Shown piece after piece: positions 6,669-24,156 of a stretch of DNA of 50,839 bases (position 1 is the first letter of the stretch; each line of letters begins with the position of its first letter). This DNA comes from an uncultured virus (IMG/VR IMGVR_UViG_3300044796_000596) (lineage: Duplodnaviria > Heunggongvirae > Uroviricota > Caudoviricetes), in IMG/VR virus record IMGVR_UViG_3300044796_000596; one strand, 5' to 3'. Position numbers and translations under genes: made by a program. The notes under the pieces are model-generated. The model had not been told where the DNA came from. It searched no databases and saw nothing but the letters and a program-made list of their open reading frames with translations.

Positions 6669-6723
6669 TACACCATGCGCTCCTGATGCGTACACCATGC
6701 GCGCATCATGCACTCCTGGTGCG
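6669..6723. promoter_or_regulatory. Candidate operator array in the divergent intergenic region
   Basis: TACACCATGCGC occurs at 6669 and 6691. CATGCG-like hexamers at 6674, 6685, 6696, 6707 and 6718 (11-bp period). Palindrome ATGCGCGCAT at 6697-6706. Confidence 0.5.
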
Positions 6724-6787
6724 CTCATCTCAAGCATGGGCCGTGCCGCACCTTGATCCACAGGTCCGAGCAGTAGACCATTGGAGC

Positions 6788-9700
6788 ATGGCGAAGATCC
6801 AAAATCCGGCACTGCTCCTCGATGAGCAGCCCCTTGCCGGACTCGCAGGCGACACGGCCGCACCGGCGGCGCAGGCACGCGGAGCACACGGATCCGGCGG
6901 TGTACCGCCCGAGAACGCGCCGCTCGGTCTTGGCGCGTCCGGCGCGGTCGGCGCGACCGGAGTCGGAGCGTCCGGTGCGTCCGGAGCGTCCGGAGCGGGG
7001 GCGCGCGCTGCGCCGATCGGGATCGGAAATGCCTCGTCGCGTCCGGAGAAGCCCGCGGATCCCGGGACCGCTCGAGGGAATGGCAAGAGTGGCGCGAGGT
7101 CGCCGACGCCGGGAGGATCGCCGCCGCGAACGTACGCCGCGCAGGAGCCCCGCTCGCCCGCACCGGGCGTCCCCGTGGGCGTCCGGCCCGCGAGCGCCGC
7201 CGTCGCCGCCCTCGTGCACGGCGTGACGGATCACATGTCGCGGGAGGGCGAGGACGGTCGCCTTCGCGACACGTGGCGCGGGGATCCGCATCGCTACGCC
7301 GGCGACATGATGCTGCACGCGCACGACCGCGCGCGCTACGAGAAGCTCAAGGAGCGCAACATGCTCCCGAGCCAGCGCTGGGGAATGCTCCAGGAGCGCG
7401 GCCAGCTCGAGGAGCGCCTCCGTGGGATCCACGAGCGCGACGGCGATCGGTTGATGGATCGCCACTGGCGCCGTCCGCTCGGCGAGCGCGTCGTGCTCGG
7501 ACTTGGCGCGGTCACGGACCACGAGCAGGAGATCGAGCGTGCGATGGACGGGATCCGGCACCGGCCGTGGTACCCCGCGCGCACCGGCTTCCGGCAGCTC
7601 GTCGCGGGGATGCGCGCGCCCCAGATCGCCCGCGTCGCGAGCGCCTTCCGCGAGGGTCCGGAGCACGCGGTCGACGTGTACCGGAGCGTGTGGGCCGAGC
7701 GCCAAGGAGAGCGGCGCGCCGCGCGTCGCGGCTGGTTCGGACAGCTCCAGCGCGCGTGGTCCACGCAGTCGCCGGAGATCCTCGTCGTCTTCGAGCGCCT
7801 CACGCGTGGCTGGTCGCCGACGCAGCGAGACATGCTCCGCCGCGCGTTCCAGGAGAACGCCAGGACCGCCGAGGTGTACGCCGAGATCGAGGCCGAGAAC
7901 GAGGGCGCGCAGGCCGCCGCCGCGCAGGCCGCGTCCGCGCGGTACGTGACCGAATGGGACACCCTCCGCGAGCCGAGCTACCAGACGCCCCTCCAGGAGC
8001 CGGGCGTGCTCCCGACCGCGCCAGGCGCAGGCGTCTCCCCCGCGGCATCCGCGGCGTCCAACGCGCCGCCGTGGGAAGAGCTCGACATGGGCCCCCTGAA
8101 CCTCGGGGCTCCAGAGGATCAGCGGTCGAGTGACGAGGACGACGAGCACTCGGACGAGGACGCCGACGCGGGCGACGCCGCGCCCGACGCGCAAGCGACG
8201 CAAGCGACAGCGACGCAAGCGCAAGCGACGCAAGCGACGCTCAACGGCAAGCCGATCAACGGCAAGTCGATCAACGGCAAGTCGATCAACGGCAAGTCGA
8301 TCGGTCTCCCCCCGCCCCCGATGGGGCTCCCGCCCGTGAACGCGGCGACCGCGCCTTCGAACGCGGCGCCCGCGCCTTCGAGCGCGGCGCCCGTCGCGGT
8401 GCCCGCGTCGAACGCGCCCCTCGGCCTCGGCGCGAAGGCACCCGTCCAGGCGTCCGTCAAGGCGTCCGTCCAGGCGCCCGTCACGCCCGCGAAGCCCGCG
8501 GCGAAGCTGCCTTCGGCCGTGCCCGCTCCCGCGGTCGCTCCCGGCCCCGTGCCGGCCAAGGTCTTCGCGGGGCCGCCCAAGCCCGGCGTGAAGGTCGCCG
8601 GCGACGGTCACCCGCACTTCGACGGCCTCAGCCGAGGTCTCGGCAAGGATCGCTTCCGCGCGCTCGGCGAGCGCTGGGGCCAGCGGCCTTGGGAGCTCTA
8701 CCGGGATCTGATGAAGTCGTCCCTCGACGAAGTCCAGAGCGATCGCGAGGGTGAGTTCATCTCGATCGCGCGCGGCATCGGATGCGATCCGATGGGCGCG
8801 TGCGTCGTCGACGGCAACGTCTGCGACATGTTCAACGCGCTCCTCGTCGACTACACGCCGGAGCAGCGGTACCGCGTCTGCGCGGCGCTCTCGAACGGCA
8901 CCGAGGCGCCGCTCGCGGTCTTCCGTGCCTGCGAGGCCGAGAACGCGAACGAGCACATGCAGTGGTCCGAGCCTGCGTTCCAGGCGTACGAGGGCGAGCG
9001 TGGGCGCGTCGGGGGCATGAACCCGGTGCACTTCTGGCGCGCGGCCCACGCCATCCGGCCGAGCGACGACACGAACGAGTTCAGCGATCTCGGTCAGACC
9101 CTTCACGCCATCGCAGGCGGAGGCCCTGGACCGAGCGCGCCGCCGCCGGCCGCGCCGCCGGCCGCGCCGTACGTCGGCCAGGCGCTCCAGCATCTGCGCG
9201 GGGCGCAAGAGCCGCAGGGTCCGCAGCATGGTCCGCAGCAGGGTCCGCAAGGCCCGCAGCAAGGCCCGGAGGCGGATGCGGAGGCGGCGGCTCCTCGGTC
9301 GGCGGCTCCGCCCGCGGATCCGATTGCGCAGGTCGCGCAGGCGGCGATGGGCACCCTGAAGTGGGCCACGCCGTGGGACGTGGCCTACAACAAGGACGCC
9401 CTCGCGGTGCTCCAGAATCTGCGGCAGGTGATCGCTCCTTGGGGGGCGTACGTGGCGCCTGACTTCGCCGCTCGACTCGTCGGTGGTCTCGCGTCGTTCG
9501 GTCTCGCCGACCTCGCGCGCCGGGCGCCGCAGGATCTCCTGAAGCTTCTCCTCCGCGACCCTCCCAGTGCCGACATGAATCCGGAGCTTGCGTGGCCCGC
9601 GCTCACGACGGGTCAGGGGTTCTCGGGCGCCGCAGAGAAGACGCTCTCGGACGCGATCCAGAGCGCGCCGCCCGGCACGGCGGCGCCGATCCTCGCGCTC

Positions 9701-12700
9701 TACCGCGGGTTGCTCAAGAACGCGGGGGATCTCCAGCGTTCGGACCGCTCGGCGACGTTCGCGCAGGTCCTGAACGCTGCGCGCACGGCGTACAAGACGA
9801 ACAATTTCGATCCGACGCAGATCGTCGCGAACCCGTTCGTGCTCTTCTCGGAGGGCATGGGGCCTCACTGGCTCCCCGTGCTCGACGCGATGAAGACGGG
9901 CGGTGACGCGCTCGCCGTCTTCAAGGCGCACGACAAGAAGGCAGGTGCCGAGCGCCAGGATCTCGCGGTGACGCGCATGGGTCAGCTTCTTCAAGGGCGC
10001 GGCCTCAACGCGGCTCCCGCACCTTCGCTCGCGCCTTCGCCCGCGCCCGCACCGGCTCCGAGCCCTGGCGTGACGCCGAAGACTGCGACGACGTACGTTG
10101 TGGTCGCTGGCGACAGCATGTCGAGGATCGCGCAGAAGTTCGGCGGGCTCAAGGGCCGGTCGATGGGCACGGCGCTCGCCGACCTCAAGGCCGCGAACCC
10201 GAACGCGCCGATCGATCGGCGCGACACGATCCCCGGACCCGTCGTGGTCGAGGGTGGGAAGGAGACGTCGACGCCGGTGGCCAACCCCAACGTGGGGCTC
10301 TTGATGCTCAACGCTGGCGATCGGATCAACCTCCCGCTGTCGTGGAGCGCGGATCCTGGAGTTCCTGGAGCGTCGGACGAGGAGGCCGGTGGGCCGGGGG
10401 ATCGCGGCCGCTGGCGCGCGATCCTCGTCGACACGCATCTCTTCCCGAGTCCCGAGACGGGGTTCGCTCCCCTCGGTCGCCTGACGGCCGGCAACGTCGT
10501 GCGCGTCCTCGAGTCGACCGAGATGCCGAGCCTTGGCGGCGGCCTTCGCCGCTGGTGCAAGGTCCACCTCCCGGCGACGGCCGTCTCGGGCGCCATGACG
10601 GGCTGGGTCTGGAGCGACGTGCTCTCCACGAACGGCGTCAGCAGCGAGGCGGGGGAAGCGGGGGACATCTTCGGTGACCTGATCGGCATGGCCGGCGGCC
10701 TGCTCGGCAACGGCAGCATCCAGGGAATCGTCCGGTCGGCCGTGCAGAATCCTGCCGTCGTCCGGTCGGTGCTCGATGCGGTGGCGTCGGATCCGCAGAC
10801 CGTGCGGGCGATCGTCGGAGCAGCGGCAGAGGACCCGAGGGCCGTGCAGACGATCGTTCGGGTGGCTGCGCAGAACCAGAACGCGGTCGACGCCGTGGTC
10901 TCGGATCCGGAGACCGTGAAGGCGATCGTCCACGCGGCGGCGCACAACCCGAAGGCCATCCGTGCGGTCCTTCACGCGGCGGTGCAGGACCCGAGCGCCA
11001 TCCAGGCGATCGTCCAGGCGACGAGCTCGGACCCGGGGATGGTGAGGGATCTCCTTCGAGCTGCGGTGCAGAACCCGAACGCCATCCAGGCGGTCGTGAA
11101 TGCGGCGATCTCCAACCCGGAGATCGTGAAGGCGCTGATCGGCGCGGCGATGAAGAACCCGGCGCTCGTGCAGGCGGTCATGCAGAGCGCGGGCTCCGTG
11201 GTCGCAGCGCTTCTCGGGCAGTCCAGGCCGGGCGGCCCCGACACGGGCTTCGCGGGCAACAAGGTGGACAACCGCGCGCCGCTCGGGCTCCGTCTCGACG
11301 CGGGCTTCGCGGGCAGCGTGGATTCGGGAGAGCTCCCCGGCGACAAGGCGGCGCAGCGGCGTCAGCTCGATCAGGTGCTGAACGCAGCCATCGCGATCGC
11401 GCAGGCGAAGGATCCGGAGACGTCGTTCCTGAACCCGCAGGTGATCGCGGCGCGCAAGGCGCTCGAAGCCTTCGATCGCCAGAACCCCGATACGGGCTTC
11501 GCGCCCGCGGGCGAGAGCGGCGATGCGATCGCGACCACGATGGACGTGCGTCCGGAGCCGATGTTCCACCTGAGCTTTCCGCCGATGACGCTGCAGGCGC
11601 TCGCGCAGATGGTGAAGATCGTCCCCTCGCTCCGTGGGGATCCCGAGGGCATCGTCGCGGAGATGGCGGGCCTCCGCGGCCAGGCGTCCGACGTCGAGGG
11701 TGTGGACGCCACGACGGGCGAGTACGTCTGCGAGCCGGGCGAGACCTTCGAGGACATCGCCGAGAAGCTCGTTGGCGATCGGAAGCGCGCTCGGGAACTC
11801 CGCGCCGCGAACCCGAAGCACGACCCGGCGAACGCGCGCCTGCGCCTGCCGCCGACGTGGTTCCAGTTCGTGCACTACGCGGCCCCCGCTGCGCTGGCGG
11901 CTCCCGAGAAGGTGGAAGAGGTCGAGGTCGATTCCGGCAGGTCGGACCCGGGCATGTACGACTCGCTTCCCCGCGACCTGGATCAACGCCGCGCCTTCCT
12001 CTGGGGCTACGGGCGCGACGTGCTTCCGATGAGCCAGCCGGTCGACTGGAACGGCGACCGTCCCCTCGTGGACGCGGGCGATGCTGCCGTGAAAAAATGC
12101 GGCGACATCCACATCACGGTCAAGGATTCCAGGGGCAATCCGGTGCAAGGCGCGTTTGCGTTCGCCGCCGCGCTCTACAATCCGGACGTTCCTGTCGCCA
12201 TGTTCAAGAAGGATCGCACTCTTGGCCAGACCAACGCCAAGGGCGAGATGATCCTGACGGTGACCGAACCCGACGTTCGCGTCGTCGTGTATAAGCAAGG
12301 GTTTCGGCCCGACTGGACTGACCTCACGGGTCCCACGGCCGTGGCTCTCGTCCGCGGTTTCGAGTTCCCCCTCCCCGTTACGTTGCTCGAGGAGCGCCAG
12401 GTGGACGCGGGCGATGCTGCCGTGGAAAAAGGCGGCGACATCCACATCACGGTCAAGGATTCCAGGGGCAATCCGGTGCAAGGCGCGTTTGCGTTCGCCG
12501 CCTCGCTCGACAAGCCGGACGCTCCTGTCGCCACGTTCAAGAAGGATTACACTCTTGGCCAGACCAACGCCAAGGGCGAGATGATCCTGACGGTGACCGA
12601 ACCCAACGTTCGCGTCGTCGTGTATAAGCAAGGGTTTCAGCCCGACAGGACTGACTTCACGGGTCCCACGGCCGTGAATCTCGCTCGCGGTTTCGAGTTC

Positions 12701-15700
12701 CCCCTCCCCGTTACGTTGCTCGAGGAGCGCCAGGTGGGCGCACGCGACCCCGCGGAGGGGCCTCCGGACGAGTCCGGGGACACGGGCGGCTTCGGCGACG
12801 TGCTCGCGGCGATCTTCACGGGCGGCCTCTCGACGATCCCGAAGATCGCCAGGATGGCCGCTCCGCAGCAGGCCCTCGAGTGGCGCCAGAACTACGGCGA
12901 GCGGTTCTGGATGCACCCCGAGTGGCGGAACCGCTGGCGCGGCCGCTACGGCGCAGAGTTCTCCAGGCACCCCGAGGTGCGGCGTCACTGGTTCGACGCG
13001 CGTGGCGTGGACGCTGGCGAGCCCGGTGCAGCGGGCATGGGCGCGGACACGAGCGGATTCGGCGACGTGCTCGCGGCGATCTTCACGGGCGGGCTCTCGA
13101 CGATCCCGGCCATCGCGCGCGCGGCGGCACCGCAGCAGGCGCTGGAGTGGCGTCACCGCTACGGCAACGACTTCTGGCATCACCCGGAGTGGCGCCAAAA
13201 CTGGCGCGCCCGCTACAACGGCCAGGACTTCTGGCACCACCCCGAGTGGCGCCGGTTCGATCGCGGCCGCATGGGCGGCGGCCGACGCTTCGAGGCTCGA
13301 CGCTTCGAGGCTCGCGGCGTCGACGCCGGGGGTCCGTCCGGGCTCAACCCGCAGACCGGCGCCGTGCTCAAGGCGCTCCGCGACGGCGCGCGCCTCGAGA
13401 TCCGCGGCGGCGCGAATGGCGGCGATGCGGCGCACGCGGTCGTCACGCACGGTCGGCGCACGTGGACCGTGCGGCCGGACGGCTCGGGCCGGATGGACCG
13501 GGACGGCCAGGTGAACGCCGAGTTCGCGCGCGGGACCTTCCGTCACGATCTCATCTCCGCGCAGGACACGGGCGGCGGCGAGAGCTTCTCGATTCTCGTC
13601 ACGGATTCGAACGGCACGCCCATCCCGGGCGCGCGCGTCGTGATGCAGAAGCAGGGCAGCGATCCCACGCCCCTCGGCCACGTCACGGGCGGCGACGGCC
13701 GGATGAGCCTCAGCGGGTTCGGGACGGGGGAATTCCTGGTCAACGTCTTCGCTCCTGGGTTCGCGGCGCCTCGTCAGGTGATCGTCGTCCGCGCGGACGA
13801 TCCGTCGCCGCGCACGGTCGTGATCACCATGCAACCGAGCATGCAACCGAGCACCACGGACGCAGGCGAGGCGGGCTACGGCGGCATCGGGGGTGGCGGG
13901 ACCACGGTCACGTTCCCCGTGCGAACGCGGCGCTTCTTGGGCTACGGCGCGCCGTGGGGCCATGAGGGCCTCCGGGGTCGCGCGGGTCGTCTCGCGCACC
14001 GCGGTCACGGCGGCCACGATGGCCTCGTGGGTCGCGAGCACCACTGGGGTCGTCGGCACTTCGGCGCCGAGGACACGGGCAGCGCTGGAAGCGCTGGAAG
14101 TGCTGGAAGCCGCGACACGGGGGCCCCCGAGGCGCTCGCGAAGGAGGTGCTCGTCCTCCTGGATTTCTACGGCTTCCCGACCGTCAAGGCGTACCAGGTC
14201 AAGCTCAACGAGCTCGCCAAGCAAGCCGGACGGGCTCCGGTCGTGCCGGAGGATGGCACGCTCGACGATGCCACGATGATGGCGATCTGGCAGAGCCTCA
14301 AGGGCGCAGCGGCAAAGCCGGATGTCGATCCGAAGGTGCTCGACATGATGGGTCGCGTCGAGGCGCTCGGGCGCGAGGTGGAGCTTCTCCAGGCTCACGA
14401 CCCGGGTGCCGAGGCGCGTGCCGAGGCGGGCGCGCGCGACGTGCTGAAGCAGCTCGGCTTCCCCAGCGTGCTGGACTTCCAGGTCAAGATCAACGAGGGC
14501 GCCAAGCAGGCCGGGAAGCCTCCCGTGCTGGTCGAGAACGACAAGCTCGACGATGCGACGTGCGAGCTGATCTGGACGCACATCAAGACGGCCGCCGCAG
14601 GGGCCAACGTCGATCCGAAGGAGCTTGAACTCATGGATCGACTCGAGGCGGTCGTGCGCGGGATGGCGGCGAGCCAGCGTCCGAACGCGGACGCCGGTGC
14701 TCCGCATGGCGCGGGCGGCGGCGGTCGTCCAGGTGGCGGTCGCCCTGCAGGCGGCGGCGGTCGTTCAGGCGGCGGTCGCGGCTTCGTCGGGATGCACGGC
14801 TCGGGTCGTGACTGGGACCGCTGGCGCACGCCGGGCGGATGGGTCGCGTACGGCGACCTCGGCTTCGACGGCTGGGCTCCGGACGACGTGGACTTCGACG
14901 ATGGCGACACGGGCTTCGCCGATGCGGGCTTCGTCGATGCGGGCTTCGTGGGCGGGCGCGGCGCAGTCGGCGGCGAGCGCGGCCTCACGGGCGTTCGGGC
15001 GGCCATGCAGCCGGCACTCGCTCTCGGTCGTGCCGGTCGCGCCATCGAACGCGGCCGCGACGAACGCGGTCTTGCCGAGCGTGGTCTTGCCGAGCGTGGC
15101 CTTCCCGATCACCTCCGCCCGTTCGGACAAGATCCGTTCGGTCGGCGCGAGGAAATCGGTCGCGAGCGCGGCGAGCGCTTCGGCGAGCGCTTCGGCGGCG
15201 GCGAGCGGTTCGGTCGCGAGCGGTTCGGTCGCGAGCGGTTCGGTGCGCCGATCGGGCGCGAGCCGCTCTTCCGCGGTCCGGCGGTGGGTCGCGGTCGCGG
15301 TCGTCGTACGGGCACGCTGAACACCAACTCGGCGATCTTCCCGCTCGACCCGAACGTTGCCGCGCCGGGCGCCGGTGGCAACCAGGAGCAGAACACGCTC
15401 CAGATGGGCGCGACGGTCGAGATCCTCCGCGGCCCTGTCCGTGGCCCGGATGGACACCGCTGGGTCGAGGTGCGCGTCATCAACGGCGGCACCGTGGGAT
15501 CGGGCATGGGCGTCGCGAACGCCATCCTGGGTGGCACCGCGCCCGCAGCCGGCCTCACGGGCTGGATGTGGCAGGACTACATCAACGTGCGCGGCGGCGA
15601 GGCCGGCGAGGCCGGCGACGTGGACGCGGGCGCCATGCGCGGCGGGCGCGGCGGACGCGGCGGCCGCAGCGGCGGGCGCGACGGGCGCAGCGACGGGCGC

Positions 15701-18700
15701 AGCGACGGGCGCGACGGGCGCGACGAGCGCGACGAACCCCAAGGTGATCCCGGCGACGGTGAGGGCGGGCGCGAGCGTGGCTCGGGCTGGCACCGTCCGG
15801 AGCACGGTGGGCACGGCGAAGCGTGGAGGCACCACGGGCGTCGTGACGACCGCTGGCGTGGTCGCGAGGGCGGGCATGGCCCGGGCGCGCTCCTGCAGGC
15901 ATCGCACGTCCACGACCGTCCGAACGAGGACACGGCTTCGCTCGGCGTGCTGCCGGCACAGACGCGCGTCCGGATCGTCGAGAAGGGAGACGGCTGGGCC
16001 CACGTGATGCCGACGGGCGGCGGCCCTGCGGGCTGGGTCCCGATGCGGAAGCTCGCCGAGGGCCTGGACGGCGTGGACACGCTGTGCGCGTTCGGGAGGA
16101 GCACGCGCGCGGCGCTCGATTGCCTGTCGGCCAACCCCGACGATCGCGCGGCGTGCGAGTGCGCGCTCCTCGAGCTTTGCAGGAATCCTTGGGTCCTCCG
16201 CCGCCTGCTCGACGGCGAAACGATCCGCGGGATCACGATCGACGATCTGCGCAACGCGGCCGACGTGGCCAGCGACGACGACAGCGACGACGACGACGAC
16301 AGCGACGACGACACGGATGCGGGCGCCGCCAAGAAGGGCAGCAAGAAGAAGTCGAAGAAGAGCAAGAAGCACGGCAAGGGCAAGAAGCACGGCAAGGGCA
16401 AGAAGAGCCAAGGCCAAGGCCAGGGCGGCGGCGGCGGCGGCGGCGGCGGCGACGATGGCGGCGGCGGCGGCGGCGGCGGAGACATCTCGAGCAGCACGAC
16501 GATCAACGAGGCCAACGAGGACGACGAGGACGACGACGCGGACACGACCACCGTGACGAAGACCACGAAGAAGAAGGGCGGCGACACGGGCGACGTGGGC
16601 GACGTGGGCGACGTGGGCGACGTGGGCAAGAACCGCACGTACACCGCGGGCGGCGGCGAGTCGGGGATCGACCTCGCGAAGCGCTTTGGCGCGATCCGGC
16701 GGGCACGCTGGGCGGGCGAGCTGCGTGACGCGAACCCGAAGAAGAAGAACCTCGCGGTCTTCATGACCAACGAGAAGATCAACATCCCCGACGAGTGGCG
16801 TGGGACCGACGCGGGCGCTCCGAAGGATCCGAAGGACGCTTCGAAGGACGACCCGTACGCGGACATCCCGACCCTCCCCGCGGTCTCGCGTGCGAAGGCG
16901 AATCGCCCGTTCGTGCAGCACGCGCGCGCGCTCGATCCTCTGCGTATTCAGGGGGCCGACTCGACGCTCGGCGGCGGCGCGCCGTTCGATCCGGAGGACA
17001 TCATCGCGGCGCCCGCGCCGGACGAGAGCCTCTGGTCGCGCTTCAAGCGTGCGGTCGGGGTCGACTCGGGCGCGCCGCAGCGCACCTACGTGGCTTCCTC
17101 CGGCGACACGCCGATCCTGATCGCGACGAAGTACGACGCGACCGCGCGACCGCGCTGGCAGGCCGAGCTCGCTCAGGCGAACCCGACCCTGGCGTGGACG
17201 CACTTCTACGGCTCCGAGGTCGTCAACATCCCGGCCGAGTGGGCGCAGCCTTGGTGGAAGGACACGATGGGCGTGGGCGGCGGGGGCGACGCGGCGTTGC
17301 CCCCCTTCGTGTACGCGGGAGCGGCGGCCGCAACCGCGTTGGTCCTCTCCCAGATGAAGCGCGCTTGGGACGTCAACGCGTCCTTCGACAAGACGAAGGC
17401 AGACGCAGCCGTCGCGCAGATGGCCAAGTTCTGGGGCAGGCTCGAAAGAAAGATGGGTGAAGAACCGGGTCTCGCGCGCGCGCTCGCGCCGCAGCACGAT
17501 GCGTGGATCGTTTTCTCGCAAAAGTGGGCCGATGGCCTTATCACCGTTCCCGGCGCCGGTGCATGGGCACTCCAGGCGCTCAACGCAGCCCTGGTTGACC
17601 TGCAGATCGCTCTCGCGAATGCGGGGTACGACGACCACGTTGGTGAGTTCAACGCCTTCAAGCAGGCGGGTAGCGACGACACGGGCTTCGCTGGCGACGA
17701 CACGGGCGCGCCGACGCGCCGGTACTACGTGCTCACGGCGGCGGACATCGCCGATCCGGCGGGTGCGGCGGCGCGCGCGGGCGTGAGCCCGATCCTGGGT
17801 GCCATCGACATGCAGGCCGTGAATCCCGGCATGTCGCCCGCGACGGCGCAGCCCGGGACCAAGATCAACATCCCGGACTCGTGGCCGGATCGACCCGAGT
17901 ACAAGCTCTGGCCGACCGACACGGGGTCGACGCCCGAGGCGCCGAAGGAGAGTAAGAAGGAGAAGCCGGCTCCGGCTCCCGCGCTCAACAACAGCGACAA
18001 GCCCTTCGCGAAGCCTGCTCCCCCGGGGTCGGCGGAGTTCAAGCTCCGTGGCAAATTCGACGCGAAGCCCGATCCGAAGGCTTCGACGCCCGCACCCGGC
18101 CAGGCGCCGGCGAGCGATGATCTCCTCGGCGCCCGCAAGGCGCCGAAGGCGGGTGCCGCTCCTTCGACGCCTGCGGCTCCGGCTGCGGACGAGAAGCCCA
18201 AGTCGGGCGCAGCGGGCGCAGCAGCGGGCGGAGCGTCCGCAGCGGCGGGCGCGACGAAGCGCGGGGGCGGCGCCACGCCCTCTCCGATCCCGGGTGGCGA
18301 GGGCGCGCGCCGTCAGGACATCACGAAGAAGACCTACGTGATCAAGGACGGCGACTCCCCGTCGCGCATCGCGCAGCGCGCGGGCGTCTCCATGACGACC
18401 TACTGGAAGGAACTCCGCGAGGCGAACCCGCACAAGACCCCCGCAAGCGGCGGTGGCTTCGAGAGCTTCCACGTCGGCGAGCGCATCAACATCCCGGACG
18501 CGTGGGCTCCGAGCCCCATGTTCGTGAGCCGACCGATCGTGCCGCCCTCCGCGATCCCGACTCCGGAGCTTCGCTTCCCCGCGCCGCCCGCGCCGCCTGC
18601 CGCTCTGCGGACGTACGTCCTCACGGCGGCCGATCTTCTGGATCCGATGGCCGCCGCACGCCGCTTCGGTCTCGATCCGATGGATCTCAGCCTGCAGCAG

Positions 18701-19576
18701 GCGCTTCTGGCTGCGAATCCGGGGCGCTCTCCCATGAGCCTCCGCGCGGGGGACGTCATCAACATTCCCGCGAGCTGGCCGCGCCACGCGAGCTTCCGCG
18801 AGCGACCGGGCGAGCGACCGGGCGAGCGACCGAGCGAGCGACCGAGCGAGCGCGAGCGCGCACGGGATCTTCCTGTCGTGCAGGTGGATCGCCCGCAGCG
18901 TGGCCCGATGGTCTCCGTCTCGGGGACGATCGATCCGGGCTCGGTCAAGCGCGTCCAGATGGACCTCGCCGTCTGGGGGCGTACGAACCCGGGCGCGATT
19001 CGGCCGCGGAACTACGGCACGCAGTCCCCGACGTCGCCCGATCTCACGGGCGCCATGAACCCCCAGACGCAGGAGGCGCTGGTGTCCTTCGGCCGCTGGC
19101 TGAACGCTTCGGCCTTCGGCAGCAAGCTCCGGGCGCAGGGCATCCCGAAGGTCCGTCCGGACGGCCTCATCGATCCGCTGCTCGTCAACCTGCTCGATTT
19201 CTACGCGCAGGCCCTGCTCAACACGCGTCGCGCGCCGACCGATGCCGACATCACGGCGTGGGTGCAGACGCAGCCTCCCGCGCGGCGCCAGCGCCGTCCG
19301 TTCGACGAGGCGCCTCACGACAGCCTCCCGCCGCACCGGCCGGGTCATGGTCGGTCCGAGCGGTCCGAGCGGCTCCCGCAGGATCAGGATCAGGATCAGA
19401 CCTCGCCGAGAGGGGACTTCCCCGACATGCGTCGCCCGCCCCCGAAGGCCCCCACGACGCCGACGCCCCCGGCTCCGCCTCCGAAGGACCCGCCCGCGCC
19501 CGAAGAGAAGAAGGACGACTCTTCGATCCCGCTCCTCGTCACCGGCCTCGCCTTGGCCGTCGGGATGTTCATGTGA
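6788..19576 (+). CDS. Giant (~4262 aa) modular cell-envelope-binding protein / putative polyprotein
   Basis: 7 LysM-like modules (Y....GD...ANP...INIP..W) at ~10087, 11719, 16634, 17080, 17717, 18329, 18608. 3 SH3b-like modules at ~10430, 15310, 15900. 3 carboxypeptidase-regulatory-like sandwiches (V.DS.G.P..GA). PG-binding-like modules at ~14130-14670 and 18940-19200. C-terminal hydrophobic anchor; no signal peptide seen. Confidence 0.85.
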   Translation: MAKIQNPALLLDEQPLAGLAGDTAAPAAQARGAHGSGGVPPENAPLGLGASGAVGATGVGASGASGASGAGARAAPIGIGNASSRPEKPADPGTARGNGKSGARSPTPGGSPPRTYAAQEPRSPAPGVPVGVRPASAAVAALVHGVTDHMSREGEDGRLRDTWRGDPHRYAGDMMLHAHDRARYEKLKERNMLPSQRWGMLQERGQLEERLRGIHERDGDRLMDRHWRRPLGERVVLGLGAVTDHEQEIERAMDGIRHRPWYPARTGFRQLVAGMRAPQIARVASAFREGPEHAVDVYRSVWAERQGERRAARRGWFGQLQRAWSTQSPEILVVFERLTRGWSPTQRDMLRRAFQENARTAEVYAEIEAENEGAQAAAAQAASARYVTEWDTLREPSYQTPLQEPGVLPTAPGAGVSPAASAASNAPPWEELDMGPLNLGAPEDQRSSDEDDEHSDEDADAGDAAPDAQATQATATQAQATQATLNGKPINGKSINGKSINGKSIGLPPPPMGLPPVNAATAPSNAAPAPSSAAPVAVPASNAPLGLGAKAPVQASVKASVQAPVTPAKPAAKLPSAVPAPAVAPGPVPAKVFAGPPKPGVKVAGDGHPHFDGLSRGLGKDRFRALGERWGQRPWELYRDLMKSSLDEVQSDREGEFISIARGIGCDPMGACVVDGNVCDMFNALLVDYTPEQRYRVCAALSNGTEAPLAVFRACEAENANEHMQWSEPAFQAYEGERGRVGGMNPVHFWRAAHAIRPSDDTNEFSDLGQTLHAIAGGGPGPSAPPPAAPPAAPYVGQALQHLRGAQEPQGPQHGPQQGPQGPQQGPEADAEAAAPRSAAPPADPIAQVAQAAMGTLKWATPWDVAYNKDALAVLQNLRQVIAPWGAYVAPDFAARLVGGLASFGLADLARRAPQDLLKLLLRDPPSADMNPELAWPALTTGQGFSGAAEKTLSDAIQSAPPGTAAPILALYRGLLKNAGDLQRSDRSATFAQVLNAARTAYKTNNFDPTQIVANPFVLFSEGMGPHWLPVLDAMKTGGDALAVFKAHDKKAGAERQDLAVTRMGQLLQGRGLNAAPAPSLAPSPAPAPAPSPGVTPKTATTYVVVAGDSMSRIAQKFGGLKGRSMGTALADLKAANPNAPIDRRDTIPGPVVVEGGKETSTPVANPNVGLLMLNAGDRINLPLSWSADPGVPGASDEEAGGPGDRGRWRAILVDTHLFPSPETGFAPLGRLTAGNVVRVLESTEMPSLGGGLRRWCKVHLPATAVSGAMTGWVWSDVLSTNGVSSEAGEAGDIFGDLIGMAGGLLGNGSIQGIVRSAVQNPAVVRSVLDAVASDPQTVRAIVGAAAEDPRAVQTIVRVAAQNQNAVDAVVSDPETVKAIVHAAAHNPKAIRAVLHAAVQDPSAIQAIVQATSSDPGMVRDLLRAAVQNPNAIQAVVNAAISNPEIVKALIGAAMKNPALVQAVMQSAGSVVAALLGQSRPGGPDTGFAGNKVDNRAPLGLRLDAGFAGSVDSGELPGDKAAQRRQLDQVLNAAIAIAQAKDPETSFLNPQVIAARKALEAFDRQNPDTGFAPAGESGDAIATTMDVRPEPMFHLSFPPMTLQALAQMVKIVPSLRGDPEGIVAEMAGLRGQASDVEGVDATTGEYVCEPGETFEDIAEKLVGDRKRARELRAANPKHDPANARLRLPPTWFQFVHYAAPAALAAPEKVEEVEVDSGRSDPGMYDSLPRDLDQRRAFLWGYGRDVLPMSQPVDWNGDRPLVDAGDAAVKKCGDIHITVKDSRGNPVQGAFAFAAALYNPDVPVAMFKKDRTLGQTNAKGEMILTVTEPDVRVVVYKQGFRPDWTDLTGPTAVALVRGFEFPLPVTLLEERQVDAGDAAVEKGGDIHITVKDSRGNPVQGAFAFAASLDKPDAPVATFKKDYTLGQTNAKGEMILTVTEPNVRVVVYKQGFQPDRTDFTGPTAVNLARGFEFPLPVTLLEERQVGARDPAEGPPDESGDTGGFGDVLAAIFTGGLSTIPKIARMAAPQQALEWRQNYGERFWMHPEWRNRWRGRYGAEFSRHPEVRRHWFDARGVDAGEPGAAGMGADTSGFGDVLAAIFTGGLSTIPAIARAAAPQQALEWRHRYGNDFWHHPEWRQNWRARYNGQDFWHHPEWRRFDRGRMGGGRRFEARRFEARGVDAGGPSGLNPQTGAVLKALRDGARLEIRGGANGGDAAHAVVTHGRRTWTVRPDGSGRMDRDGQVNAEFARGTFRHDLISAQDTGGGESFSILVTDSNGTPIPGARVVMQKQGSDPTPLGHVTGGDGRMSLSGFGTGEFLVNVFAPGFAAPRQVIVVRADDPSPRTVVITMQPSMQPSTTDAGEAGYGGIGGGGTTVTFPVRTRRFLGYGAPWGHEGLRGRAGRLAHRGHGGHDGLVGREHHWGRRHFGAEDTGSAGSAGSAGSRDTGAPEALAKEVLVLLDFYGFPTVKAYQVKLNELAKQAGRAPVVPEDGTLDDATMMAIWQSLKGAAAKPDVDPKVLDMMGRVEALGREVELLQAHDPGAEARAEAGARDVLKQLGFPSVLDFQVKINEGAKQAGKPPVLVENDKLDDATCELIWTHIKTAAAGANVDPKELELMDRLEAVVRGMAASQRPNADAGAPHGAGGGGRPGGGRPAGGGGRSGGGRGFVGMHGSGRDWDRWRTPGGWVAYGDLGFDGWAPDDVDFDDGDTGFADAGFVDAGFVGGRGAVGGERGLTGVRAAMQPALALGRAGRAIERGRDERGLAERGLAERGLPDHLRPFGQDPFGRREEIGRERGERFGERFGGGERFGRERFGRERFGAPIGREPLFRGPAVGRGRGRRTGTLNTNSAIFPLDPNVAAPGAGGNQEQNTLQMGATVEILRGPVRGPDGHRWVEVRVINGGTVGSGMGVANAILGGTAPAAGLTGWMWQDYINVRGGEAGEAGDVDAGAMRGGRGGRGGRSGGRDGRSDGRSDGRDGRDERDEPQGDPGDGEGGRERGSGWHRPEHGGHGEAWRHHGRRDDRWRGREGGHGPGALLQASHVHDRPNEDTASLGVLPAQTRVRIVEKGDGWAHVMPTGGGPAGWVPMRKLAEGLDGVDTLCAFGRSTRAALDCLSANPDDRAACECALLELCRNPWVLRRLLDGETIRGITIDDLRNAADVASDDDSDDDDDSDDDTDAGAAKKGSKKKSKKSKKHGKGKKHGKGKKSQGQGQGGGGGGGGGDDGGGGGGGGDISSSTTINEANEDDEDDDADTTTVTKTTKKKGGDTGDVGDVGDVGDVGKNRTYTAGGGESGIDLAKRFGAIRRARWAGELRDANPKKKNLAVFMTNEKINIPDEWRGTDAGAPKDPKDASKDDPYADIPTLPAVSRAKANRPFVQHARALDPLRIQGADSTLGGGAPFDPEDIIAAPAPDESLWSRFKRAVGVDSGAPQRTYVASSGDTPILIATKYDATARPRWQAELAQANPTLAWTHFYGSEVVNIPAEWAQPWWKDTMGVGGGGDAALPPFVYAGAAAATALVLSQMKRAWDVNASFDKTKADAAVAQMAKFWGRLERKMGEEPGLARALAPQHDAWIVFSQKWADGLITVPGAGAWALQALNAALVDLQIALANAGYDDHVGEFNAFKQAGSDDTGFAGDDTGAPTRRYYVLTAADIADPAGAAARAGVSPILGAIDMQAVNPGMSPATAQPGTKINIPDSWPDRPEYKLWPTDTGSTPEAPKESKKEKPAPAPALNNSDKPFAKPAPPGSAEFKLRGKFDAKPDPKASTPAPGQAPASDDLLGARKAPKAGAAPSTPAAPAADEKPKSGAAGAAAGGASAAAGATKRGGGATPSPIPGGEGARRQDITKKTYVIKDGDSPSRIAQRAGVSMTTYWKELREANPHKTPASGGGFESFHVGERINIPDAWAPSPMFVSRPIVPPSAIPTPELRFPAPPAPPAALRTYVLTAADLLDPMAAARRFGLDPMDLSLQQALLAANPGRSPMSLRAGDVINIPASWPRHASFRERPGERPGERPSERPSERERARDLPVVQVDRPQRGPMVSVSGTIDPGSVKRVQMDLAVWGRTNPGAIRPRNYGTQSPTSPDLTGAMNPQTQEALVSFGRWLNASAFGSKLRAQGIPKVRPDGLIDPLLVNLLDFYAQALLNTRRAPTDADITAWVQTQPPARRQRRPFDEAPHDSLPPHRPGHGRSERSERLPQDQDQDQTSPRGDFPDMRRPPPKAPTTPTPPAPPPKDPPAPEEKKDDSSIPLLVTGLALAVGMFM
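12068..12733 (+). repeat. 333-bp tandem duplication of a beta-sandwich module
   Basis: Copies 12068-12400 and 12401-12733 are near-identical and each begins VDAGDAA. Confidence 0.9.
12778..13330 (+). repeat. Duplicated module DT(G/S)GFGDVLAAIFTGGLSTIP...HPEWR
   Basis: Two diverged copies, starting at ~12778 and ~13046. Confidence 0.85.
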
Positions 19577-21108
19577 GCACCCTCGACAACACCGTGCGCC
19601 CCTTTGCGGGCGACGCAGGTGCGGGCGCGCCCGGCGCCGTCGCCGACGCCGATGACATCTTGGGCGCCCGCAAGGCGTCGAAGGGCAAGGCGTCTCCCGG
19701 CCCCGCTCCTGCGCCCGCTCCACCCGCCCGCAGCGAGGTCGATGACGTCTTGGGTGCCCGCAAGGCGTCGAAGGGCAAGGCGTCTCCCGGCCCCGCTCCT
19801 CCACGCGCATCCGCGCCTGCACCCGCGCCTGCACCCAACGGCGGTGGCGGCGCTGGGGCCGCTCGTGCGGGCGCGCTCGGGGGAATCGGCAATGTCATCG
19901 CGCGCCTGAACCCCTTCGCGTCGAACGCGGAGCAGGAGCAGAAGGTCCGTGATCTCGCGGCTGGCTGGGCCGAGCTTGAGGCGCGCATGCGCGCGACTCC
20001 TGTCCTCGCACGCGACCTCAGGCTGCAGCACGACGCCTGGGTCGGTTTCTATGCAAGGTGGCAGGCGGGCGACAAGAACGAGGCGGCGATCAACGTCTGC
20101 GTCAACGAGCTCACCTCGGCGCGCGCCATCGCTCTCAAGATCAACTGGCAGGACGTCCCGAACAAGCTGCCGCCGGTCGAGGACTCGGCGGCGCGCCGCG
20201 CGGCCGAGTGGGTGAACCAGCACGCGCCGACCCTTCGCGGGGTCATGGATCTTCTCGATCAGAACGCCGTCTTCCGGAGCAAGGCCAAGTGGCTCTTCTC
20301 GGATCCGAACCCGGAGCAGGCGGCGCGGCTCGCGATCGATCCCGCATGGCCGACCGATCCGGACGAGCGAATGCGCGCGCTGCGTACGCTGAACGCTCAA
20401 ATCTTGTGGACGGCGGACGCGCTCCGCAAGGACGGGCTCAGTCGTCTCAAGGACGCGCAAGGGACGGTCGTCCTCGGCAGCGACCCGAGGCCCGTGTACC
20501 CCACCCCAGCGCACAACTTTGCAGCGGCGACGTTGGCGCGGACGCCGATGGTCTTCCTGCCGCCAGGCGAGTACGTCGCCGGAACTGTCGTGACGAACGG
20601 CGGGTCGCCCTTGCTGAAGGTGCCATCGTCGCCGACGACCCCCCTCGGAGGTGACACGGGCTCCCCCATCCTCATCGCCGTCGCCGTCGTCCTCTGTTTC
20701 GCGATGTGTGCCACAGCGGTCACCTGCGTCATCGAGCTCCGTGCGAACGTCATCGACCGGCAGCTCGCGCGCGGCTCCGACACGGCGCGCCTCATGGAAC
20801 TCACGAAGGCCGGCGTTGCCCTCATCGGGGATCACGCGCGGCGCGAGCAGGAGGCCCAGCACACGATCCCGTTCACGGATCAGGAGATCCAGTTCCTGAA
20901 ATCGATCGAGGAGTGCCAGAATCTCATCTGCGCCAAGACCGAGCAGCCGCTGCCCGTGCCGTTCACGAACGCGCTCACGAGCGTTTCGGCGGGCTTCGGT
21001 AAGGCGGTCGAGCACACCGGCGCTGCCGCCGAAAAGCTCGCCGAGGCCCTCCCCTTCGTCGCCGTCGCGGCCGTCGTGGTCGGTGGCGTGATGCTGATGA
21101 AGCACTGA
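19573..21108 (+). CDS. Membrane protein with two hydrophobic segments, sharing a domain with the giant protein
   Basis: GTG start overlaps the giant ORF stop. WAELEARM...QHDAWVGFYARWQAG matches WGRLERKM...QHDAWIVFSQKWADG in the giant protein. DD.LGARKA motif is also shared. Internal and C-terminal TM segments. Confidence 0.75.
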   Translation: MSTLDNTVRPFAGDAGAGAPGAVADADDILGARKASKGKASPGPAPAPAPPARSEVDDVLGARKASKGKASPGPAPPRASAPAPAPAPNGGGGAGAARAGALGGIGNVIARLNPFASNAEQEQKVRDLAAGWAELEARMRATPVLARDLRLQHDAWVGFYARWQAGDKNEAAINVCVNELTSARAIALKINWQDVPNKLPPVEDSAARRAAEWVNQHAPTLRGVMDLLDQNAVFRSKAKWLFSDPNPEQAARLAIDPAWPTDPDERMRALRTLNAQILWTADALRKDGLSRLKDAQGTVVLGSDPRPVYPTPAHNFAAATLARTPMVFLPPGEYVAGTVVTNGGSPLLKVPSSPTTPLGGDTGSPILIAVAVVLCFAMCATAVTCVIELRANVIDRQLARGSDTARLMELTKAGVALIGDHARREQEAQHTIPFTDQEIQFLKSIEECQNLICAKTEQPLPVPFTNALTSVSAGFGKAVEHTGAAAEKLAEALPFVAVAAVVVGGVMLMKH

Positions 21109-21141: not shown

Positions 21142-21473
21142 CTCGCCGAAGGGTTGAGCCACGTCCGCGGTCCTCCGGACGATCTCCTGAGATCCATCCG
21201 ATCTACTTCCGAGATCCTTCCGAGATCCATCGCCGCCGCGGGACAAGCCGAGCCGCCGGAAGGTGAGGCGATCCCCATCCCTCCACCTCCTGCGCCTTCT
21301 GATTCTGATCCTGAGGATCGTGAGGATCCTGGGCTCTAAGCGATTTTGGACGGGCTCCCGATCAATTCGACCCCCCGACCCCGAGATTTTTATTTACCTA
21401 CGCCGGGGTGGCGGGGAAGAAACCAATAGACGTGAGCCGGCCCATGGCTGGCGACCAAAATGAGGAGACGATC

Positions 21474-21980
21474 ATGGCCGAAGGCAGCGTGACGATGGGC
21501 GTGGGGCACTACCAGTCGGTGATGCGGAAGCTGAAGGAGGCGGGCGCCGAGGTCAAGGGGTACGGCGGCGCGCTCCTGGCGAAGCGCAGCACGCAGGCGC
21601 TGATGACGGTCGGCGGCGCCGCGATCGGCTGGTACATCCTCTCCAACAAGAGCTGGTCCGACAAGATCGGCGTCTTCAAGGCCCATTGGTGGCTCAAGCC
21701 GCTCCTGGTCCTCGCGGTCGGCTGGTGGGCCTGGCGCAAGGAGAAGGTCTACGCCGGCCTCATCCTCGCCATCGGCGCGGCCCTGTTCGCGCAGGCGTGG
21801 CGTACGGAGTCGAACATCACGGCGAAGCCGCCGATCGAGTCCGGCGACGTGGCCTGGGACGCGGACGCGGGCCAGTGGGTCAAGACCGGCACGGGCGGCG
21901 AGGTCCTCATGCCCGCCGGCGGCACGGACGAGAGTTCCGTGTTCGCGCGGAGCGTGTTCGAGAAGGCGCGCGCGGCCTGA
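21474..21980 (+). CDS. Multi-TM membrane protein
   Basis: GAGGAG RBS and three hydrophobic segments; lies immediately upstream of the candidate capsid gene. Confidence 0.8.
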   Translation: MAEGSVTMGVGHYQSVMRKLKEAGAEVKGYGGALLAKRSTQALMTVGGAAIGWYILSNKSWSDKIGVFKAHWWLKPLLVLAVGWWAWRKEKVYAGLILAIGAALFAQAWRTESNITAKPPIESGDVAWDADAGQWVKTGTGGEVLMPAGGTDESSVFARSVFEKARAA

Positions 21981-23442: not shown

Positions 23443-23547
23443 GCGGGCAGGGTCGATCACGGTCCTGATCGGGTCCACGTTCTCGCCTTCGCGCCTCGAG
23501 CGCGCAGGCGCGATGTGGGCCCGGTTCGATCTGAGGAGACGCAGGCG

Positions 23548-24156
23548 ATGCCGAGCAGCTACTCCAATCCCGTCTTTCCGCCGCCGAGCCCAGGCGTGCA
23601 GACGGCGATCCTGCGTACGCAGACCCACCACTCCCCCACCAACAACAACCTTCGCGTCTATGCGCTCGGCCTCGCGTCGCTCCGGCATGTCCGGATCGCG
23701 ATGGCCGCCTCGCAGATGACCAACCTGGAGCCGGCGCCGCAGTGGTGGGTTGTCAACGCCTACTGCGCGCTCAAGTTCCCGCAGCGCGACCTCAGTCCGA
23801 TCGGGAGCGGAGCGAACGAGCTCGCGCTCTCTCCAAGCGTCGTGACCATCCCGTCCCTCGGCGCGCGGACGATGGCGATCCTCGATCTCTACCTCCCGCG
23901 GTATCCCGAGGTGCTCTTCGTCAACCTCTACTTCTCGACGTACCTCGACGGCCCGACCGCCCAGACGTACGTGATGGGCTATCCGGACGGCGCCCCGCAT
24001 TCCTACGACGGCATGTTCCTCACGCCGAGCGGACCGGGAGTCTTCCTCCGGCGCGATGAAGGTGGCGCGCATGACGGCCCGTTCGAGAGCGCGAGGAAAA
24101 GACCGCTCGCGGACCTTCGCGCGGACGGTTGCGACGCTCCTCGCAGGCGCGGCTGA
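23548..24156 (+). CDS. Hypothetical beta-rich protein (possible minor structural)
   Basis: GAGGAG RBS; co-oriented in the operon. Confidence 0.65.
   Translation: MPSSYSNPVFPPPSPGVQTAILRTQTHHSPTNNNLRVYALGLASLRHVRIAMAASQMTNLEPAPQWWVVNAYCALKFPQRDLSPIGSGANELALSPSVVTIPSLGARTMAILDLYLPRYPEVLFVNLYFSTYLDGPTAQTYVMGYPDGAPHSYDGMFLTPSGPGVFLRRDEGGAHDGPFESARKRPLADLRADGCDAPRRRG

Follow-up and report, generated by a model that had tools for sequence, protein, structure and literature searches.

What is the meaning of a tripeptide that recurs at the module borders of a giant viral protein: is the chain cut at these sites, or do they join the units of a chain that stays whole? The question is raised by an uncultured virus of the IMG/VR collection (record IMGVR_UViG_3300044796_000596), of which a stretch of 50,839 nucleotides, called the window in what follows, was analysed. 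The window comes from a peat metagenome and carries a gene for a protein of 4262 amino acids (aa), referred to below as the giant. A first-pass annotation of this DNA, made from the sequence alone, had read the [DE]-[TAS]-G tripeptides of the giant as maturation cleavage sites of a polyprotein. We find that the tripeptide is a non-random, ordered junction motif between modules, describe its distribution within and beyond the giant, and weigh the readings that it allows.

An ordered tripeptide between the modules of the giant

The open frame at 6686-19576 (+) is one real gene, which runs for 4296 codons without a stop (4296 aa from its first ATG) and has a third-position G+C content (GC3) of 0.86 in this frame over its whole length. 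Residue numbers throughout are counted from the ATG at 6686; the start at 6788 (Met35), chosen in the first-pass annotation, is preferable, since relatives share its short N-terminus, 'A.LLD', as judged by eye.

Where the earlier annotation had spoken of more than 20 sites, 38 occurrences of [DE][TAS]G, or 8.85 per 1000 aa, were counted in the giant, against 14.8 expected from composition. Residues were shuffled over the whole protein or, to preserve local composition, inside blocks (sizes 10, 20, 40 and 100 residues), 1000 times per block size; at each size none of the 1000 shuffles reached 38 (means 12.5-14.8, maxima 23-28). By tripeptide, the observed and expected numbers are 11/1.8 for DTG, 13/5.3 for DAG, 7/3.6 for EAG, 3/1.8 for DSG, 1/1.2 for ETG and 3/1.2 for ESG, and DTG is the third most over-represented tripeptide of the giant, behind GGG and GER. 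Permuted controls are rare (GTD 1, GAD 2, TDG 0, ADG 1, DGT 1, DGA 1). The sites are encoded by 21 different 9-mers that match the gene's general codon usage, so the signal lies in the protein and not in a DNA word; an origin from RCCGGY-type palindromes was rejected, the sites consisting mostly of ACG, GCG and GGC codons.

The 38 sites fall into just 28 clusters, about twice the shuffle mean, and the stutters already noticed in the first pass are therefore real: EAGEAG (twice), DTGFADAGFVDAGF, DDTGFAGDDTG and DTGDVGDVGDVGDVG. Likewise, every context quoted there was found again, namely VDSG-APQRTY, DDTG-APTRRYY, VDAG-DAAV (in both tandem units) and DTG-GFGDVL, as was an LGLG motif, at residues 80, 271 and 579, two of these inside NAPLGLGA. 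The constant feature of the sites is the acid at position -2, followed by A-G in 20 cases, T-G in 12, S-G in six and G-G in none. Val and Gly (nine each) dominate before the acid, and the residue after the motif Gly is D (8), F (8), A (8), E (5), G (4) or another, continuing as A-P five times and as F-[AV] eight times. Acidic D.D.D runs surround many sites.

The motif is unevenly spread along the chain. All sites except one lie in residues 1233-3745 (37/38); residues 1-1232 hold the remaining one and residues 3748-4296 none, and long disordered linkers are present in both of these flanking regions according to the AlphaFold2 (AF2) model and to composition. When borders were placed from Pfam envelopes, internal repeats and sequence, some module limits being judged by eye, 24 of the 28 clusters lay at a module border, in agreement with the earlier statement that sites stand directly before modules; of the other four, those at 1257 and 3325 fall within a domain and those at 494 and 2741 within low-complexity sequence. 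Duplicated units had also been said to start at the motif, and indeed they do (1795-1912 against 1906-2023, 83-88 % identity; 2012-2097 against 2103-2187, 64 %). The tail of an SH3 module together with its EAGEAG (1298-1328) is repeated at 2951-2979.

The motif in relatives, neighbouring proteins and the host lineage

A HMMER search with residues 190-1100 of the giant against 1.84 billion representative sequences returned 17 proteins, six of them full-length single open reading frames (ORFs) of 1798-2130 aa. Further copies were found in two metagenome-assembled genomes (MAGs) of Polyangiales, G001 and G002, including one of about 2.4 kaa in G001. The giant of the window is thus about twice the size of its family, the surplus being its central array, and the parts shared family-wide are three helical domains, a Gly-rich amphipathic segment, a block called domain B (Table 1), LysM modules with the C-terminal domain, and the hydrophobic tail. 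No match was obtained by megablast of the giant gene against a phage collection, no relative by a word-based search for relatives of 2362-7518 aa, and none by scans of viral contigs with the long capsid-like protein and giant residues 1439-2271; the 11 loci of 1.5-8.1 kb from a metagenome scan do not reach far enough to show the neighbourhood.

Five of nine family members (P0001, P0004, P0031, P0034 and P0036) are significantly enriched in the motif, with 0-1 of 500 local shuffles reaching the observed count, and four (P0002, P0035, P0037 and P0038) are not. Position matters around domain B. Within 45 residues after this block the motif is found in 8 of 10 members (base rate 0.20), and within 25 residues before it in 5 of 9 (base rate 0.12), two more having ETAG or ETSG there; the effective numbers in this test are slightly lower because P0002 and P0003 are close relatives. 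By eye, [DE][AT]G also stands some 8-12 residues before the last LysM in P0002, P0004, P0031, P0036 and P0038, not in the window's giant, and the motif occurs within the first ~45 residues of five of the seven giant homologues that have an N-terminus. It was found in none of nine relatives within 25 aa upstream of the C-terminal domain. Judged from these sequences, the tripeptide is conserved by position in relatives that are 30-40 % identical and is a trait of the family.

The motif is shared by neighbours of the giant gene, as the first-pass annotation had pointed out. By tblastn, the gene order giant, p511, p190, long capsid-like protein, p213 and 1431-aa hydrolase is conserved in the loci of four relatives, and we refer to these genes as the module. 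D[TA]G was counted 24 times in the giant, 10 times in the hydrolase, four times in a collagen-like protein (1743-3248), twice in p511 and at most once in each of the others; it is absent from the compact structural-looking proteins of the window. The hydrolase has 14 sites of the full motif [DE][TAS]G, including DTG five times in tandem: (DTG)5-DAG-ETG lies between its two N-terminal repeat domains, the motif precedes its SGNH part, and DSG stands directly before its C-terminal anchor. In p511 (19573-21108) the two sites are a DAG at residue 14 and a DTG directly before an internal hydrophobic stretch. The motif abuts hydrophobic segments three times in the giant, twice in the hydrolase and in p511, examples being DTG-SPILIAVAVV (p511), DSG-FGFAAIAAAA (the hydrolase anchor), EAG-MIGALGPIL and DTG-GFGDVLAAIF.

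The N-terminal part of the long capsid-like protein (22100-23395) contains DSGDAGAP, and 20 of 22 long capsid-like proteins have the motif in their N-terminal extension. Together these arms hold 46 sites against 10.1 expected under local shuffling, none of 2000 shuffles reached either 46 or 20/22, and the reverse orders occur 3-7 times; these counts are not independent events, because the sequences are related. Acidic D.D.D runs accompany the motif here too.

As controls for the host lineage, 400 kb were taken from each of G001 and G002, which carry related elements and are not the window's own host, using crude gene calls and a third-position G+C filter. The 153 proteins from G001 (66,382 aa) have 2.33 sites per 1000 aa, with observed/expected numbers of 19/15.3 for DTG and 56/43.4 for DAG; the 163 from G002 (77,463 aa) have 2.08 per 1000, with 16/21.4 and 53/52.1. 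Linker-like segments of G001 give 13/10.5 for DTG and 35/27.5 for DAG, against 11/1.7 and 13/5.0 in the giant. Among proteins of at least 400 aa, the giant's 8.85 per 1000 is matched by one of 67 in G001 and one of 82 in G002 (2/149 in total). Host linkers of equal density would have spoken against cleavage in the terms of the earlier annotation; the bulk values of 2.1-2.3 per 1000 lie far from 8.85, and, with DTG and DAG near expectation, the bulk background fails to explain the motif. The dense host proteins are lipoproteins, L025 10426-11709 (-) and L058 12902-14107 (+), with N-terminal tethers made of GGDAG-LLGDAFGSVG, GGDAG-APY and repeated DAG-AP. The accompanying caveat, that DAG-rich linkers are common in myxobacterial proteins, hence holds for DAG in these two lipoproteins and fails for DTG, which is not enriched.

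Linker, cleavage site or recognition signal

We give an even chance to the reading that the motif is an uncut linker idiom, akin to the DAG(AP) tethers seen in lipoproteins of the host lineage. The N-terminus of the giant, MAKIQNPALLLDEQ, is without a hydrophobic core and has no signal peptide, as judged by eye, and its last 17 residues have a mean Kyte-Doolittle hydropathy of 2.02, a similar tail (1.74-2.61) being present in all seven relatives that have a C-terminus. Given this tail and the lack of a signal peptide, the giant is predicted to be a tail-anchored protein. It would hang from a membrane by its C-terminal hydrophobic helix, with its bulk on the cytoplasmic or capsid-facing side, and the membrane would be the element's internal one if the particle is PRD1- or sphaerolipovirus-like. 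From the N-terminus onward the chain consists of the three helical domains, an expandable murein-binding and Ig-like array (six LysM or LysM-like modules, three SH3 modules, three immunoglobulin (Ig)-like sandwiches and Gly-rich hydrophobic segments), and the conserved C-terminal binding domain beside the anchor. Such a protein may serve as a long multivalent tether from membrane to host murein, and the hydrolase, which is tail-anchored as well, would act alongside it in entry or exit. The motif, which is inherited and copied along with its module and often reads V/G-D-[TA]-G with F, A-P, D or G next, would then be an acidic, glycine-hinged stop between folded units, spread by slippage and module duplication, while the chain stays uncut.

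The stutters, the copying of the motif with the modules, the loosely defined next residue and the same strings in host lipoprotein tethers are consistent with such a linker idiom, as are enrichment in only five of nine members, the negative search for a protease and the oddness of the fragments expected from complete cutting. On the other hand, several observations weigh against it. A hinge leaves the fixed order D-[TA]-G unexplained, GAD, ADG, DGA, TDG and GTD being at or below expectation, and the motif persists at matching linkers that are otherwise unalignable, 8/10 after and 5/9 before domain B. It is present in 20/22 N-terminal arms of capsid-like proteins, an unrelated protein with no upstream module to link, and is missing from disordered linkers of the giant itself (446-633, 791-908 and 3748-3880). 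DTG, the form most enriched in the giant (11 against 1.8), stays near expectation in both Polyangiales samples (19/15.3 and 16/21.4). Finally, about 60 % of the window's genes are without a recognisable family, so that a hidden protease is possible, and the full contig, of at least 174.8 kb, extends well beyond the window.

Maturation cleavage at [DE]-[TA]-G, in which an unrecognised viral or host protease would process the giant, the hydrolase and the long capsid-like protein as precursors, is a real though doubtful possibility. Cuts might fall after the Gly, in the manner of poxvirus (AG/X) and African swine fever virus (ASFV; GG/X), or after the acid, as in the T4 and phiKZ prohead, and would give 5-8 sensible products in the relatives of ~1900 aa; from the window's giant they would also free Gly-rich hydrophobic peptides such as GFGDVLAAIFTGGL. 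What stands of the first-pass reading is an ordered border motif, specific and enriched, that is shared by three or four proteins of a single virion-like module, holds its place in relatives both around domain B and ahead of the last LysM, and does not match the bulk of host-lineage proteins. The 20/22 capsid-like arms (46 sites against 10.1) and five of seven giant N-termini resemble a leader followed by a processing site, and the motif lies directly before hydrophobic segments in giant, hydrolase and p511.

What is missing is a protease, as the earlier annotation had conceded, and the cutting itself is not visible in sequence. The check for a linked enzyme found none among the ~32 proteins of the window searched with Pfam at permissive thresholds, PHROGs and NCBIfam, most of them being without any family and the window only part of its contig, and none among ~58 proteins of the relatives' loci searched with Pfam, including ~60 kb around one relative. 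Nor did the AF2 model and fold searches reveal a protease-like fold in the conserved N-terminal third of the giant. The sole retropepsin-like string, 'IALDTGA' in 457-948 (-), belongs to a protein with no Pfam match whose Atlas model aligns to ferredoxin-like domains, and this candidate was rejected. Protease sites do not usually stutter in tandem like (DTG)5, no constraint is apparent on the residue that follows Gly, four of nine family members are not enriched, and DAG-AP strings also occur in the host lipoprotein tethers. Full cutting would leave lone LysM, SH3 or Ig modules of 50-100 aa, which is functionally odd, and only the last 550 aa would stay attached to the anchor.

In its most specific form, cleavage would mean that an unrecognised protease matures a bacterial membrane-containing jelly-roll particle at [DE]-[TA]-G, trimming one capsid arm and cutting a tail-anchored precursor of ~450 kDa, which we regard as rather unlikely. 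If true, the products would be a helical core, murein-binding pieces and Gly-rich hydrophobic peptides with a fusion-peptide-like start, G-FGDVLAAIFTGGL, and the polyprotein maturation known from ASFV, poxviruses and adenoviruses would have a prokaryotic counterpart.

A recognised short linear motif that is not cut is quite improbable. It might be a capping or flanking element, a docking site for capsid shell, scaffold or chaperone, or a divalent-cation site in acidic clusters such as DFDDGDTG and DDGDADAGW. Positional conservation and fixed order would suit recognition, as would the repeated abutment on hydrophobic or transmembrane segments and the acidic D.D.D runs near many sites, but no partner is known, and many sites have a single acid and lie ahead of beta-rich modules (LysM, Ig). 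The classic calcium loop, DxDxDG, has Asp and not Thr or Ala before its Gly.

Least of all does an artefact survive: a chance open frame in DNA of 70 % G+C, a fused reading of several genes or a by-product of a DNA word is a negligible prospect. High-G+C DNA does yield long spurious ORFs (opposite-strand ORFs of 2660 and 1689 aa here), but third-position GC periodicity fits the giant's frame only, Pfam domains lie within it, homologues are single ORFs in other genomes, contigs of an RNA library match the gene exactly (DNA carry-over being possible) and the motif sites use 21 different 9-mers, so that domains, periodicity, homologues and codon variety already contradict it.

Two outcomes are thus at stake. 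Polyprotein maturation, a trait known so far from large viruses of eukaryotes, may be used by jelly-roll viruses of prokaryotes as well, or else DAG/DTG linkers of the myxobacterial type are simply a conserved hinge; either outcome would explain the recurrent DAG string in secreted proteins of myxobacteria.

The gene module, the element and known systems

The modules of the giant and the other genes of its module are collected in Table 1.

Table 1. Coordinates of the giant gene, its parts and the neighbouring module genes in the window (residue numbers in brackets).
Feature	Position	Strand	Basis or remark
Giant gene	6788..19576	+	4262 aa from Met35; first ATG of frame at 6686 (4296 aa)
Conserved all-helical domain 1 (190-445)	7253..8020	+	AF2, pLDDT mostly >90; conserved in relatives
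Conserved all-helical domain 2 (634-790), conserved G-C...C pair	8585..9055	+	AF2; relatives
Conserved all-helical domain 3 (909-1100)	9410..9985	+	AF2; relatives
LysM 1	10094..10204	+	Pfam PF01476
Central module array (1233-3747)	10382..17926	+	Makes the giant ~2x family norm
SH3_3 number 1, then EAGEAG	10451..10627	+	Pfam PF08239
Helical repeats of ~11 residues, NP..V..V type	10703..11206	+	Internal repeats, sequence
Domain B (RP.P.[YF]HL ... LysM-like ... PP.WF..V.Y)	11543..11893	+	tblastn; best-conserved block of the family, 49-56 % identity
Two tandem Ig-like sandwich units, each opening VDAGDAAV	12068..12754	+	83-88 % identical; weak Big_1 and CarboxypepD_reg matches
Two tandem units: D-T-[GS]-GFGDVLAAIFTGGLSTIP, Gly-rich hydrophobic segment, then Trp/Arg-rich part	12770..13246	+	64 % identical
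CarboxypepD_reg-like Ig domain, DTG before it at residue 2294	13595..13822	+	Pfam PF13620, 46.8 bits vs 32.3
Two tandem helical units opening DTG-APEAL and EAG-ARDVL	14114..14689	+	Repeat 2491-2520 vs 2586-2615
SH3-like module 2, then EAGEAGDVDAG	15425..15595	+	Similarity to tail of SH3 number 1
SH3_3 number 3 (3075-3119)	15908..16042	+	Pfam PF08239, 32.1 bits
LysM 2 (3316-3371) and LysM 3 (3465-3520), motif before each	16631..17245	+	Similarity to Pfam-confirmed LysM
LysM-like 4, DDTGFAGDDTG before, DTG after	17720..17920	+	Internal similarity
LysM 5 and LysM-like 6, no motif before either	18329..18814	+	Pfam LysM; repeats
Conserved C-terminal domain ('VDPGT ... FQ.W.N ... DG..DP')	18926..19216	+	In all relatives; peptidoglycan-binding look by eye
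C-terminal hydrophobic anchor SIPLLVTGLALAVGMFM, then stop codon	19523..19576	+	Hydropathy
p511, next module gene, C-terminal anchor	19573..21108	+	Synteny; motif; hydropathy
p190, conserved small membrane protein	21408..21980	+	tblastn
Long capsid-like protein, probable jelly roll, ~90-aa N-terminal extension with DSGDAGAP	22100..23395	+	Model, homologues
p213, conserved module gene	23515..24156	+	tblastn
1431-aa murein hydrolase: SGNH/GDSL, SpoIID and phrog_32486 modules, C-terminal anchor, 14 sites	24172..28467	+	Domain searches
Short capsid-like paralogue, probable jelly roll, no N-terminal extension, no motif	33960..35018	+	51 % identical to long form

Over the whole giant, LysM scores 46 bits against a Pfam cut-off of 20.9, with piecewise copies at residues 1137 and 3884 and four more copies by internal similarity, and SH3_3 scores 42.9 bits against 27 in two stretches. 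The units at 14114-14689 resemble a peptidoglycan-binding domain by eye alone and have no Pfam match. An AF2 model of the N-terminal third (911 residues) was built with an alignment of relatives; with this model Foldseek found nothing in the PDB at E <= 1e-3, and a wide VIA search reached a best Z of 5.4, which is uninformative. A sequence search of the PDB with the giant gave nothing at E <= 0.1.

C-terminal anchors are present in three module proteins, the giant, the hydrolase and p511. The last of these shares a 42-aa block with giant residues 3576-3617 (45 % identity, E 1.3e-6). The N-terminal region of the hydrolase (24172-25700, +) consists of two copies of a ~210-aa domain, each ending H.DHHDYGTLLY.VSDTDP.LRS, that is absent from the relatives' hydrolases; the phrog_32486 module is also present in two copies, and a PDB sequence search with the hydrolase found SpoIID alone (E 0.008).

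The window has a G+C content of 68-72 %, and nearly all of its likely genes lie on the + strand. Contigs of an RNA library from another study match exactly over the giant gene, p511/p190, the capsid-like gene, p213 and the hydrolase, a hint of expression, DNA carry-over being possible. At 13283 the RNA-library X2 contig is without 15 bases (five codons) of the giant's Trp/Arg-rich repeat unit; the frame is kept, as in a strain variant. Two further runs, X3 and X4, contain small shares (0.08 and 0.05), in short, mismatched pieces, and were left aside.

The capsid-like family counts 26 members in 5.8 billion proteins, all of them unnamed, and a long and a short form (P0007, P0014) occur together on one 42-kb contig. 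The AF2 model (pLDDT 76.4, pTM 0.76) is matched best in VIA by the SPV1 capsid protein (Z 7.6, 158 residues aligned, rmsd 4.8), HCIV-1 (5.7) and P23-77 VP17 (5.7) and VP16 (5.1), where a Z below 8 may reflect a common arrangement; nucleoplasmin cores score Z 5-6 against the model as well. Foldseek found nothing in the PDB at E <= 1e-3, with capsid proteins on top of the list, and six matches in BFVD at E <= 1e-3, of which the named ones are jelly-roll capsid proteins; an Atlas feature search led to viral clusters and, weakly (0.78), to PRD1 P3. On the strength of these models, the element is likely virus-like with a jelly-roll shell.

A pattern scan with both capsid-like paralogues identified three loci in Polyangiales MAGs, one of them on a 1.78-Mb contig; that element is therefore integrated. 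Both MAGs contain several copies. In G001, a second copy (L012/L013) is broken off after p213 and followed by CheB, serpin and PP2C genes, and beside the fuller one lie genes for an FtsK/SpoIIIE ATPase, a DnaB helicase, an H1-like protein and a 4547-aa methylase/SNF2 protein. The FtsK_SpoIIIE protein (E 4.5e-31) adjoins the giant gene. In the window, 4462-6357 (-) has a Walker A motif and a weak AAA_25 match (E 0.032), and a PDB sequence search with this protein returned low-complexity matches alone. Relatives carry a second giant gene downstream of the hydrolase, at L045 380-14023 (-) in G001 (4547 aa) and L001 13137-17939 (+) in G002, with N6-methylase/Eco57I and SNF2 helicase domains. A Lys/Ala-rich, histone-H1-like protein is encoded in the window at 46616-47524 (+), and an HC2 (H1-like) match lies at L045 14960-16489 (-) in the G001 element.

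Further genes of the window deserve mention. About nine consecutive paralogous genes at 36638-47524 (+) vary in length and share the C-terminal motif C-H-H-C-K-x-P-I-x-G-x-P-V-S-x-H-x-x-G-K-P-S-K-H-Y-H-x-x-H-A-x-H-H, which looks metal-binding and has no match in Pfam, PHROGs or NCBIfam. Four proteins (28524-29477, 29519-30025, 30120-30791 and 33102-33560, all +) have the common N-terminus MS.P.P.Q.KNF.GG....LY.YL and then diverge; one is Gly-rich, another has a weak CBM_5_12 match, and they look like interchangeable spikes or receptor-binding proteins built on a shared adaptor. The collagen-like protein at 1743-3248 (+) has a GPQ/GDAG repeat and matches tail-fibre PHROGs through its collagen stretch alone. 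A small protein at 35739-36230 (+) contains a CX5R-type string, CHEGWNRSG, and a weak dual-specificity phosphatase match (PF00782, E 0.0054, below cut-off). The ORF at 31697-32200 (+) has an odd composition (first- and second-position G+C of 0.87 and 0.33; runs of D, E, L and V) and may be an acidic protein or an opposite-strand shadow.

The element looks like an undescribed lineage of membrane-containing jelly-roll viruses, or of virus-derived elements, in genomes of Polyangiales (Myxococcota). Its relatives are few, 26 capsid-like proteins in 5.8 billion and 17 giant representatives in 1.84 billion. The listings, abstracts and passages covered by the literature search contained no description of such elements in Myxococcota, and viruses that are tailless or have a jelly roll go unmentioned in passages of a 2026 preprint on viruses of myxobacteria.

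Several known systems invite comparison. Proteases that act on virion precursors at small-Gly motifs include adenain of adenovirus, I7 of poxviruses (AG/X) and pS273R of ASFV, which processes pp220 and pp62 (GG/X). As in their substrates, a short motif ending in Gly recurs here at the borders of huge proteins and in the N-terminal part of a capsid-like protein, 20 of the 38 sites being A-G, and as in these viruses a jelly-roll capsid is apparently combined with a membrane. Unlike in those systems, no clan-CE or other protease was detected in the material searched here, the sites stutter and the host is bacterial; the fixed feature is the acid two residues before Gly, with Thr frequent besides Ala; and the modules are murein binders rather than core shell proteins, their cleavage being hypothetical. 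The prohead proteases gp21 of T4 (L/I-x-E) and gp175 of phiKZ (S/A/G-x-E) trim many internal head proteins and remove N-terminal leaders. Their sites share with ours an acidic and then a small residue and the high number per large protein, but T4 and phiKZ are tailed phages with an HK97 fold and a recognisable protease gene, whereas none was found here and the capsid-like proteins are modelled as probable jelly rolls.

The host lineage offers another parallel. The lipoprotein tethers of L025 and L058 have the same GGDAG-LLGDAFGSVG and DAG-AP strings in Gly/Ala/Pro-rich linkers, but theirs is a single N-terminal tether, whereas those of the giant lie between many modules, and DTG is unenriched in the host samples.

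Icosahedral viruses with an internal membrane and two single-jelly-roll capsid proteins, namely Sphaerolipoviridae, Simuloviridae, the Thermus phage P23-77 and SPV1, are described in two papers (PMC12643093, PMC12642351). The element resembles this group in its two paralogous capsid-like proteins, the model being matched best by capsid proteins of SPV1, HCIV-1 and P23-77 (Z 5.1-7.6), in its several membrane-anchored proteins and in the FtsK-type ATPase beside the module in one relative. It differs in having no sequence similarity to them, a Z below the safe level for a fold match and a host in Myxococcota. It is also far larger, the 50.8-kb window, all of it 'dark', standing against genomes of 16-31 kb, and its two capsid-like genes lie 10 kb apart. 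We know of no giant murein-binding protein in sphaerolipovirus/SPV1-type families.

P7 and P15 of PRD1 are virion-associated murein hydrolases of a membrane-containing phage. Like these proteins and multi-LysM/SH3 wall binders, the giant and its neighbours combine LysM and SH3_3 domains above the Pfam cut-offs with a murein hydrolase in the same module; unlike multi-LysM/SH3 binders, the giant is 4262 aa long, is predicted to be tail-anchored, contains three new helical domains and lacks a catalytic domain. Virion proteins that bind the wall through an array of modules are a known kind, and so are motifs for linking or processing; new here are the family with its helical domains 1-3, the giant format with a tail anchor, and a junction tripeptide that is conserved.

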